IMG/VR virus record: IMGVR_UViG_2721755646_000011
Reading direction: 5' to 3' (one strand)
From: a virus
Lineage: Duplodnaviria; Heunggongvirae; Uroviricota; Caudoviricetes
Length of the DNA stretch: 64,000 bases
Below are positions 32,001 through 35,000 of this stretch, piece by piece. A program made the position numbers. Positions within the stretch are counted from its first letter, which is position 1. Every line of letters starts with the position of its first letter.

Positions 32001-35000
32001 GCGTGAAAACACCGTCCGCGCCTGCTGGCAAAGACGGCAGAATCATCAGAATTGTGTAGTCTGGAATTTTGCGCCATCGGCTTTCTCCGGTGGCACAGTG
32101 TTACTCAACAGGGGTTCAGCCCTGCGCTGAATTGTAGATGAATTCACTAATCTTCAAAAGCAGAAAAACCAGCCTTAATCCCAGCTTCTTTCAGAGACGG
32201 CAACGATGTGACAAATTCATTTGCACGCAAAATAAAACCATCCGTCACAAGCCCATCCACAAAATGAATTAACGCAGCTCCACTCTTCCTTTGTTGAGAC
32301 TGTAAACATTTAATACGGCAGTGGCTGACAATAGCGCCCTTCTCAACGCGCACAGTATAGAGGCCATCTTCACTAAAAATTTCACGTAATTCTTCGATTC
32401 TCATCAACAGAATCCTTCCAGATAAATAGCACTCCCCTGTTCGGGGTCCATCCCTCTTCTCCCTGCGCGCTACTTAAGTATTTTTGATTCTATTCCGGCG
32501 CCGTCCGGAACTTCAAACGCGTTGAAAATAAAAACAAAAACCCGCCGAAGCGGGTTAAGTGCGGGTGCGTTGAGGATGCCTGACACATCAGAGGTGGCGA
32601 GGGATTTCTCCCCCGCCTGGTCTCTTACTCCTCAGGTTCGTAAGCTGTGAAGACAGCGACCTCCGTCTGGCCGGTTCGGATTCGTACCTCGCAGAGGTCT
32701 TTCCTCGTTACCAGTGCCGTCACTATGACGGTTAAACAGATGACGATCAGGGCGATTAGCATCGCCTTTTGCTGCTTCATAGCCTGCTTCTCCTTGCCTT
32801 TCGGCACGTAAGAGGCTAACCTACGTGTGTAGAGCATAGATATGGCCTCAGATTAATGTTAAGCGTCTTGCCGGACGCGTAATGTTAACTGGGGCTTTTC
32901 TCTATCTGCCGTTGGTGTTCATGCCCGAGGCAGATAGCCTCAAGCACCCGCAGCAATTCTACTTAACTCTCGCTTTACCGCAAACCGTTTTTACCCGATA
33001 TGGGAATTCCCATATCGTAATGAATTCAGTTCCCTAGTCGATCCATCAAAAACACAACCAGGCAGTAAACGCCCACAACAGCAATAACAGCCAGCGCACC
33101 TTCCATTGCCAGTGAAATATCATCCGACATATTCCCTCCTTTGGTGTGAATCCCGGCGAACGTTTTTACCCCCACCGACAAATAACATATACTAAAAAAT
33201 CAATAGCTATAGCAACGCCTGTAATTGCAAAGGCTTCAGGCCAGATCATTGGCGCACCTCCTGCGGCGGTTCTGGTAGCGGCATCCAGTGTGACGGTTTC
33301 CACGACGCACCAGGAATTATCCACCCATCATTAGCGTCAGGATGCCCCGGGATGTAAGTAGCCAATTTCATTCGCCAGTCACCTTTCCTGTCAAACTCCA
33401 CGGCAACAAGAACGGCTGTTTTGGTATTCGGCATTCGCTCACTACAGCTTATCCAACCATCCGGAGTTACCGGAGAATTGCCAGCCTTGCGCATGGCAAT
33501 CTCCATGATTTCAACCATATCTCCTGGTGGAATTTTACAATGCTGACCAATATGCCTCTGCTGCCTGGCATATTCGAGGATGTGCTCCAGCTTGATACGA
33601 TTAATCATGATTTATCTCCCTGAAGCATGGCTTCGCGGCAGTCGTTCCAGCCTTCAGCATAATCACTATACGCAAGAGGCCAACCGTTTCTGTATTCACG
33701 CGGCAACTTATCAGGCACTACCAGCGCTGGCGGCGCGGAGAATAGTGGTTTAGGTGATATTTCCGCACGTTTTGCGTATGCTTCAACTGTGTCAGGGTTA
33801 AACAGGATTATGTTTTCACCGCATTCCCACGCTATCGGTTCTGCTTCCAGCGATGCCAGTGCAATTTTGAATAACTCGCCCTCTACCCGTGCCATCCCTG
33901 AATTGGGGTAGCATTTCGCAATCGCTATTTTTAATTTGGCTTCTTCGATTAATTTCTCTTTGGTTAATTCAGTCACTTTTCATTACCGCCCTTTCGGGCG
34001 GCCTCCTGACATTAATCGTTGTGATAACTCATAGCTTCATTTGCAGCATCAACTGGATCAACATCCCACCAGCAATAATTTGGGTCGACACCTTCAGGTG
34101 TCCACGGCTCTAATTCATTTTTTGCCGCATTCTCGTCGCCAGTAATTTTAAAAATCTGCTCTGAGAACTTTTTCACCCACTCGTTATATTTTTCAGCGTT
34201 AATAACTTTCTGTGCGTTTGACATTGATATACCTCCGGTTAAGGATTAAATTTTTAACAGAGCTAAATTTAATTATTCAGTTCTGGATTTTGTCACCCTG
34301 CGTATCCGCGCTTTCACGTTACGCTCAATCTGAATTAGCTTTTCTATATTTCTCCGCCTTTCCCGTTCCTCCTGGCGCAAGATCCTTACATCATCTGCCA
34401 GTCTGGTTTCTCTTTTCGCCACAGAGAGCATCCAGTCAAATGGCTCCACAACTGCACCGCAGATTTTACAGCGGACCTGACGCTCTTTTTCGTCAACCCG
34501 AACAGAGGCGTGATGACAATATGCTCTTTCCGATGGCTCATAAAGAAAATTAACCTGATTACGTGGGTCATCCTCTTTTACCGGAAATAAAACGATATTG
34601 CTTAACTCATCTTCTGGTTTTATTTCCATGCTCTTCTCCTTTGATGTGAATGCCAGCGACAATTGAAGCCTGATAGCTAATTCACTCACAATACCGCCTC
34701 CTGAAAATTGCCCTGATAGAACGCCAGTACACGCAGCATAACTTCACTCTTCCGGCACTCGCCACAGATTATGTTCTGTTGTCTGTCGTAGCGGCGTATT
34801 TCTCCGTCTGGTAACTTTCGAATCAATGTCTGGTCGGTTGTTTTCTCCGCTGCCTTACGCCATACGCGATACACCTGTTCTGATGTAAAAACACCGTATT
34901 TACCGGGCATGTATAAATCGCCGCAAGCCAGTACATCCACAAGGCAACGTCTGACTGAATGCCAGCCTGCTCCCGTCGCTCTCTCCAGTTGTGATATCGT

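Follow-up and report, generated by a model that had tools for sequence, protein, structure and literature searches.

The 64,000-nucleotide window analyzed here, a stretch of tailed-phage DNA (Caudoviricetes; IMG/VR record IMGVR_UViG_2721755646_000011), very probably carries an intact hok/mok/sok type I toxin-antitoxin (TA) module. The module is a paralogue of hokW-sokW whose toxin is identical to K-12 HokD, and it lies in the nin region of an ompW-integrated lambdoid prophage of Escherichia coli O157:H7. All sequence elements of such a module, together with their conservation and covariation, were directly seen, and the promoter of the antisense RNA, Sok, is identical to one that has been tested experimentally. 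That the transcripts are produced, processed, and active in this copy, as well as their biological role, we infer rather than see; Sok should likewise be unstable and Hok toxic, as judged from homology to hok/sok of plasmid R1 and to hokW-sokW. The original prediction, made from the sequence alone, had placed a 51-amino-acid (aa) Hok/Gef open reading frame (ORF) at 32500-33000, with a mok-like in-frame extension upstream, a terminator downstream, and a cis-encoded antisense RNA expected on the plus strand at 32780-32950. The ORF (32780-32625), its extension, and the terminator were all found on the minus strand, and both the predicted Sok (~32829-32899) and its promoter (32794-32822) fall within the expected plus-strand interval (Table 1).

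The −35, spacer, and −10 of the Sok promoter, like the Sok hairpin, are base-for-base identical to those of sokW in Sakai prophage 5 (Sp5). Experiments have established the hokW-sokW locus of Sp5 (Stx phages, 933W type) as a type I TA system (Takada et al. 2021, PMC8621323). In that study, sokW is complementary to the hokW leader over 71 nucleotides (nt) and was seen on a Northern blot, with RNase III and Hfq partly needed. Primers YO-421/YO-422 replace exactly TAACCTA, yielding a promoter-less sokW mutant in which protection was lost, and sokW supplied in trans on a fragment equivalent to window positions 32778-32931 gave partial rescue (PMC8621323). Here, the −35 sequence TTGCCT lies in plus-strand CTCCTTGCCT and overlaps the complement of the hok Shine-Dalgarno (SD) sequence, while G32829 lies 7 nt past the −10. 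Over the segment 32790-32910, the window differs from Sp5 solely at positions 32825, 32831, 32832, 32838, 32842, 32843, and 32844. Across 40 aligned loci, the TTG of the −35 was present in 39, and the T at position 6 of the −10 was invariant; the A at position 2 was found in all but one hokC-type subgroup, which is without the first base.

The predicted Sok RNA begins with an unstructured 15-nt tail (32829-32843) whose sequence complements the mok start codon and the preceding spacer. The tail is followed by a 53-nt hairpin (32844-32896), the 5′ arm of which is complementary to the mok SD, and then by the U-tract UUUUCUCU. An 81-nt Sok stretch folds at −32.1 kcal/mol (z = −4.8), and the 71-nt version folded too. 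In the 40 loci, 93.1% of the hairpin cells were paired and 7 of the 23 pairs changed on both sides; none of 500 shuffles matched the observed values, and slid registers were only 33-54% paired. G-U pairs accounted for 147 of 662 hairpin cells, and when the identical columns were read on the hok-sense strand, pairing dropped to 71.3%. This difference between the strands suggests that the hairpin has been kept for a plus-strand RNA. In the hokD/hokW group, the hairpin includes an extra inner stem (AAGCGTCTTGCCGGACGCG; window 32853-32887, plus strand), which is an insertion of ~18-21 nt relative to loci with a short-form hairpin. The extra stem is missing in hokC-type, Photorhabdus, and Erwinia loci and in the Rfam consensus; the outer stem is common to both forms.

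The Rfam model RF01794, labeled "sok antitoxin (CssrC)," might be read to imply that the antitoxin RNA is instead the minus strand of 32775-32949. The model indeed matches the 175-nt leader on that strand over its full length (positions 1-157) with 111.7 bits (E = 8.9e-26), compared with merely 17.7 bits on the plus strand, well under the cut-off (gathering score) of 59. However, the RF01794 consensus runs from the mRNA 5′ end to ...AAGGCAAgGggaaggCuAaaAUG, i.e., the hok SD and start codon, and the model therefore describes the hok-sense leader and not the antisense RNA. In addition, both the experimentally defined promoter of sokW and its detection probe put the RNA on the opposite strand (PMC8621323), and the G-U pattern of the hairpin also favors the plus strand. 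We consider the literal interpretation of the label to have a negligible probability. No Rfam family matches the true Sok strand; the plus-strand match to RF01794 and those to isrK, rsmX, and ceN48 were sub-threshold and were taken as chance. The E value of the leader alone indicates that the signals of the locus are not due to chance.

The toxin ORF matches Pfam family PF01848 (HOK_GEF) with 81.6 bits (E = 2.9e-23; cut-off, 22) and PHROG 251 ("MokW-like host killing") with 114.7 bits. The protein is that of K-12 HokD (WP_000813254.1). As anticipated for a Hok protein, the alignment retains the consensus TRK-LCE core: T44, R45, K46, L48, C49, and E50 (numbering of the 70-aa Mok frame) do not vary between the window and HokW, HokC, and R1 Hok. 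The mok frame opens 19 codons ahead of the hok ATG, with its SD, GAGG, 8 nt ahead of the mok ATG at 32837. Phage records annotate this frame as MokW, and it shares 91% identity with its 70-aa counterpart in Sp5. The Tyr47 codon is part of a UACG motif, making it a candidate TadA editing site. In K-12 hokD mRNA, the equivalent Tyr codon is edited by TadA to a Cys codon, and hokC-type loci share an editable Tyr codon near the C terminus (PMC5630033). From the SD through the terminator, K-12 differs from the window at only four positions, none of which is less than 20 nt from the UACG motif. A second UACG (32683-32686, minus strand) straddles the Val32/Arg33 codons; an edit there would be silent at the protein level.

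We also examined the hok mRNA from its promoter to its terminator. The leader alignment comprised the window, Sp5 hokW, and 44 distinct loci from Escherichia, Shigella, Kluyvera, Citrobacter, Photorhabdus, Pantoea, and Erwinia. In all aligned loci, the conserved block starts with the near-invariant GGGTGCTTGAGG, which begins at 32949 in the window; position 1 of RF01794 aligns to the same base. Six nucleotides ahead of GGGTGCTTGAGG, related loci have a TAnAAT-like hexamer at the position equivalent to the hok −10. For the −35, the options are TTGCGG (32983-32978; 16-nt spacer) and TTTGCG (32984-32979; 17 nt), and the promoter as a whole has 8 of 12 matches, just under the scan threshold. A promoter-like site with 9 of 12 matches (TTAACA-18-TATGCT; 32862-32833, minus strand) is also present within the leader, and its start would fall past the mok ATG. 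At the other end of the transcript, the terminator has a 7-bp stem with five G-C pairs and a 4-nt loop (32556-32539), followed by the T-tract TTTGTTTTTA.

Folding of the segment 32949-32532 yielded −172.8 kcal/mol (z = −7.4 versus shuffles), with the 5′ and 3′ ends paired: in this full-length minimum free energy (MFE) structure, the first 13 nt of the mRNA (tac) pair with 32575-32563 (fold-back inhibition element, fbi). The tac/fbi duplex recurs 45-51 nt past the stop codon in Escherichia, Kluyvera, Photorhabdus, Pantoea, and Erwinia loci, with compensatory changes from GGGUGC/GCACCC to GGGCGC/GCGCCC and from GAGG/CCUC to GAGA/UCUC. The R1 model includes this same tac/fbi interaction (PMC9841398). 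In the same structure, the ucb box pairs with UGAGGC (32850-32845) and thereby hides the GAGG of the mok SD; the ucb block is conserved as AAAGCCCC in intact loci. In related loci, the variable block that holds the mok ATG is flanked by the conserved motifs GAGGC and GCCTC, which pair with each other in the Rfam consensus structure. The hok SD, AAGGAG, is conserved in the leader alignment as well. In R1, the −10 of Sok lies within or adjoins dcb (PMC9841398). When fbi and the terminator are left out of the folded RNA, tac pairs locally in a 5′ hairpin, which corresponds to the metastable 5′ structure of the nascent R1 hok transcript, a concept from the same source (PMC9841398).

Table 1. Features of the hok/mok/sok locus and an adjacent ORF (window coordinates)
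Feature	Position	Strand	Remarks
hok/mok promoter	32956..32984	-	−10 TAGAAT 32961-32956; weak −35, read from the sequence
Full-length hok/mok mRNA (predicted)	32530..32949	-	~420 nt; 5′ end G32949; 3′ end in the T-tract past the terminator
tac element GGGUGCUUGAGGC	32937..32949	-	Pairs with fbi in the full-length MFE structure
Local tac partner GCCUCGGGCAU	32921..32931	-	5′ hairpin; MFE structure of the RNA without fbi and terminator pairs 32949-32937 with this segment
ucb/anti-SD box AAGCCCCAG	32889..32897	-	By homology to R1 (PMC9841398)
mok frame	32625..32837	-	70 codons plus stop, in frame with hok; SD GAGG 32849-32846; ATG 32837-32835
dcb (GCCUC)	32812..32816	-	3′ half of the GAGGC...GCCUC target hairpin holding the mok start region
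hok toxin gene	32625..32780	-	51 aa plus stop; SD AAGGAG 32795-32790
UACG motif at Tyr47 codon (UAC 32642-32640)	32639..32642	-	Candidate TadA A-to-I site; would recode Tyr to Cys
fbi element CCUCAACGCACCC	32563..32575	-	49 nt past the stop codon; tac duplex −21.5 kcal/mol
hok mRNA intrinsic terminator	32529..32556	-	AACCCGC-UUCG-GCGGGUU, then UUUGUUUUUA; terminator scan
Sok promoter	32794..32822	+	−35 TTGCCT 32794-32799; 17-nt spacer; −10 TAACCT 32817-32822
Sok antisense RNA (predicted)	32829..32899	+	~71 nt; start ± ~2 nt; 3′ end 32899-32903
34-aa hydrophobic ORF (MSDDISLAMEGALAVIAVVGVYCLVVFLMDRLGN; WP_001278450.1, hypothetical)	33026-33130	-	Just upstream of the hok promoter

Judged from its homology to R1 hok/sok (PMC9841398) and Sp5 hokW-sokW (PMC8621323), the module would operate as follows. 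A weak constitutive promoter would produce a stable mRNA of ~420 nt (32949 to ~32530, minus strand) that is translationally closed, with tac paired to fbi near the 3′ end and the upstream anti-SD box holding the mok SD. Slow trimming of the 3′ end would strip off fbi and let the leader refold, so that the mok SD and start codon become accessible, and Hok would be made solely through translational coupling to mok. The plus-strand promoter overlapping the hok SD would in turn supply an unstable Sok of ~71 nt, short-lived and in excess, whose tail and hairpin arm would pair with the mok start codon and SD. Translation of mok, and hence of hok, would thus be blocked, and the Sok-mRNA duplex would be cut by RNase III. 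Should Sok synthesis stop, the long-lived mRNA would be translated and the 51-aa peptide would enter and depolarize the inner membrane. In Sp5, the trigger is prophage induction; for plasmids, it is loss of the element.

Some observations weigh against an intact and working module. Both promoters have elements that match the consensus poorly, namely, the −35 of hok and the −10 of Sok (TAACCT), and a generic sigma-70 scan found no site on the plus strand at 32780-32950. As the scan required at least four of six matches per −10 and TAACCT matches TATAAT at only three, the Sok promoter was missed. We therefore rejected the silence of the scan as proof that Sok lacks a promoter: the experimentally defined −10 of sokW, also TAACCT, fails the same rule. 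Thus, the promoter expected by the original prediction did not appear in a generic search, whereas a promoter identical to that of sokW is present, and taking the absence of a sigma-70 promoter as a refutation would be a false negative in this case. The open form of the mRNA was not reproduced in silico, as the MFE structure of the 3′-shortened mRNA is the local 5′ hairpin and not the tac/ucb stem of R1; GGG(U)GCUU could pair with AAGCCCC, yet the MFE structure has the hairpin. The 3′ end differs from that of hokW, and the kinetics of 3′ processing may therefore differ too. Finally, chromosomal E. coli hok loci were reported to be unable to mediate postsegregational killing (Pedersen and Gerdes 1999, cited by a bioRxiv survey and by PMC5630033), which means that an intact sequence does not guarantee activity.

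The reported inactivity of chromosomal copies also bears on whether the locus could be a decayed, nonfunctional remnant, as in K-12 hokD (relF), with the toxin ORF alone left and no working control by mok and Sok. Chromosomal hok loci are often reported as inactive (bioRxiv survey; PMC5630033). In keeping with a remnant, RefSeq names the gene hokD and annotates no mok or Sok, and the toxin protein and terminator match K-12 hokD exactly, with three substitutions in the 3′ untranslated region (UTR). However, the homology to K-12 ends at 32794, just ahead of the hok SD, beyond which K-12 continues into relE. K-12 hokD is hence a truncated form without mok, Sok, and tac. The window, in contrast, retains the 170-nt leader in full, along with tac/fbi, the mok ATG and its SD, and both the promoter and the hairpin of Sok, and no insertion sequence (IS) element, frameshift, or deletion is visible in comparison with the functional hokW-sokW. 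Decay is thus very unlikely. The window instead shows the module in full, and the K-12 arrangement can be explained as a derivative of it. The relE-hokD junction at the breakpoint 32794/32795 also occurs in three of the other loci (L007, L028 [a Kluyvera contig], and L044).

Although the Sok hairpin is well conserved, the sequence opposite the mok start is not. Among seven closely related loci, a small and nonindependent sample, variation affects 11 of the 18 positions at 32829-32846, compared with 4 of 54 in the hairpin and U-tract. There are at least seven tail alleles, all of which keep the CAT complementary to the mok ATG. This variation may tune specificity between paralogues. A more elaborate version, which we regard as improbable but not far-fetched, is that the tail and the mok start serve as an allelic "address": loci with 95% identity or more elsewhere differ almost solely in the first 16-18 nt of Sok, and this could make co-resident copies orthogonal. 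If so, losing or inducing one prophage would fire only the Hok of that prophage. This version further holds that, with Sok directed against the early-right operon, antiterminated read-through at induction could be the event by which Sok is removed in Sp5. We also considered that the tails might always be distinct between co-resident prophages, but this idea is weakened by the Stx2 (Sp5) and Stx1 phage copies, which have identical Sok regions. Exchange of entire modules between related prophages is suggested by PPompW_14040, an ompW-site phage in other O157 strains: its hok/sok (L060, 3146-3535) occupies an equivalent map position, between the replication genes and rem/ydfU/rusA/Q, and belongs to a different subtype with a short Sok hairpin and a TTGACC −35.

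The biological role of the module is less certain than its mechanism, with prophage stabilization and phage exclusion being the classical alternatives. The same mechanism could serve a role other than prophage stabilization, either as a lysis-timing helper at induction, as proposed for Sp5, or as an abortive-infection or exclusion device; we find this plausible, if somewhat short of an even chance. In Sp5, sokW vanishes in a RecA-dependent manner after mitomycin C treatment, HokW appears ~1 h before endolysin, and deletion of the locus halves phage release (PMC8621323). In the window, hok runs in the direction of the early-right operon and Sok against it, and read-through upon induction could conceivably interfere with Sok. 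As for exclusion, R1 hok/sok reportedly lowers the plating of phage T4. On the other hand, the effect in Sp5 is modest (about 2-fold), and the role here would be carried over from Sp5 to a prophage that has a frameshifted exonuclease gene and several pseudogene fragments. A bioRxiv survey that catalogued prophage copies of hok/sok found enrichment in prophages and no enrichment of hok near defense systems.

The surroundings of the locus support its assignment to the nin region. The 581 bases around it match the chromosome of E. coli O157:H7 strain TR01 at 100% identity, and the full window maps to a lambdoid prophage inserted at ompW. The genes of this prophage include integrase, excisionase, dicB, a cI/cro-like pair, O-like and P, DUF551, hok, a rem-like gene, DUF968/ydfU, rusA, and Q, followed by lysis, head, and tail genes. 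The original prediction had put hok among replication and nin genes, and this placement agrees with both the gene order, in which hok sits between O-like/P and DUF968/RusA/Q, and the strand, which hok shares with these genes and cro. Placement of rem-hok between replication genes and ydfU/rusA/Q recurs in PPompW phages and mEp460. Similar DNA was found in 4,727 of 5,426 complete E. coli genomes, at a median of 2 and a maximum of 10 places per genome (8 places in strain TR01), as well as in 102 phage records. Hok was also found at 96-100% identity on two short contigs assigned to Acinetobacter idrijaensis (L018, 275 nt) and Xanthomonas pisi (L023, 431 nt), most likely through contamination of these assemblies by E. 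coli or phage DNA.

Other features lie close to the module or farther along the window. The 34-aa ORF upstream of the hok promoter had no match in Pfam, NCBIfam, or PHROG, and it contains a terminator-like hairpin (33075-33059, minus strand). Between the hok terminator and the rem-like gene (32407-32147), close behind the terminator, lies a promoter-like site with 9 of 12 matches (32516-32487, minus strand). Other RNAs reaching the Rfam gathering score were AgvB (an anti-GcvB small RNA), STnc100, a tRNA downstream of Q, and DicF by dicB, with matches at 27463-27524 (plus strand), 27526-27718 (minus), 27804-27863 (minus), and 39680-39731 (plus). Beside the ompW prophage, at ~45000-64000 (record positions 1718049-1737000), the window contains the last part of a second prophage as well as an effector-rich island (nleA, nleH1-2, nleF, nleG, and espM1) with several IS elements and pseudogenes.

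As hok/sok is the founding type I TA system and the near-identical hokW-sokW has already been studied experimentally, the discovery value of the locus is small: the module is known and common, a textbook hok/sok without novelty. Its value lies in annotation. RefSeq has a single CDS at the locus, "hokD," and annotates neither mok nor any RNA gene, leaving the true antitoxin (~32829-32899, plus strand) and mok unannotated or at risk of being put on the wrong strand. Both have been missed because this record and most others label only the hokD CDS and because the sole Rfam "sok" model is the hok-sense leader; annotation based on RF01794 would put "sok" on the wrong strand and give it 175 nt instead of ~71 nt.

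In comparison with known systems, the locus is closest to Sp5 hokW-sokW, with which it has in common the hok −10, the leader, the Sok promoter, the Sok hairpin and U-tract, the in-frame 70-aa Mok, tac, and fbi. The two differ by six substitutions clustered at 32831-32844, in the tail over the mok start and within the initial 16 nt of the predicted Sok, and by two changes in the Mok N terminus and four in the last eight residues of Hok. Past fbi, the sequences diverge completely, and the window has the canonical hairpin terminator of K-12 hokD, which differs from the end of Sp5 hokW. In the VT2-Sakai record, the hokW locus lies near the end of the provirus record, unlike the nin-region location found here. 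Judged by the Sok tail and the Hok substitutions, the locus is a paralogous allele of hokW-sokW and not the same allele.

K-12 hokD (relF), from the cryptic prophage Qin, encodes the same 51-aa protein with one synonymous difference in the ORF, has an identical fbi and terminator, and is followed by the same neighbors (rem-like, DUF968/ydfU, and Q). It keeps only the part equivalent to window positions 32480-32794; the leader, mok start, Sok promoter, and Sok are replaced by relBE. The window shares the hokD protein name but not the relBE-hokD arrangement, since relBE is absent and the leader is complete. By its sequence, the locus is a mosaic: its promoter, leader, and Sok are of the hokW type, and the end of the ORF, the 3′ UTR, and the terminator follow K-12 hokD.

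The founding member, R1 hok/sok (parB), follows the same logic, and its tac/fbi, ucb, mok SD, dcb, SD-overlapping Sok promoter, and tail-plus-hairpin Sok are all recognizable by position. In R1, mok is out of frame with hok, whereas mok of the window is in frame; the R1 copy is on a plasmid and the window copy in a prophage. The Hok proteins of R1 and the window are ~43% identical, a value that agrees with the 44% published for HokW and R1 Hok (PMC8621323). The hokC (gef)/mokC/sokC locus and other chromosomal Escherichia loci also have an in-frame mok (MLNTCRVPLTDRKVKEKRAMKQ..., from locus L016) and the same leader blocks. The hokC-type loci differ from the window by the short Sok hairpin, the −10 region GGC-ACTCTA, and the −35 TTGACC, with 72% identity over the Mok frame.

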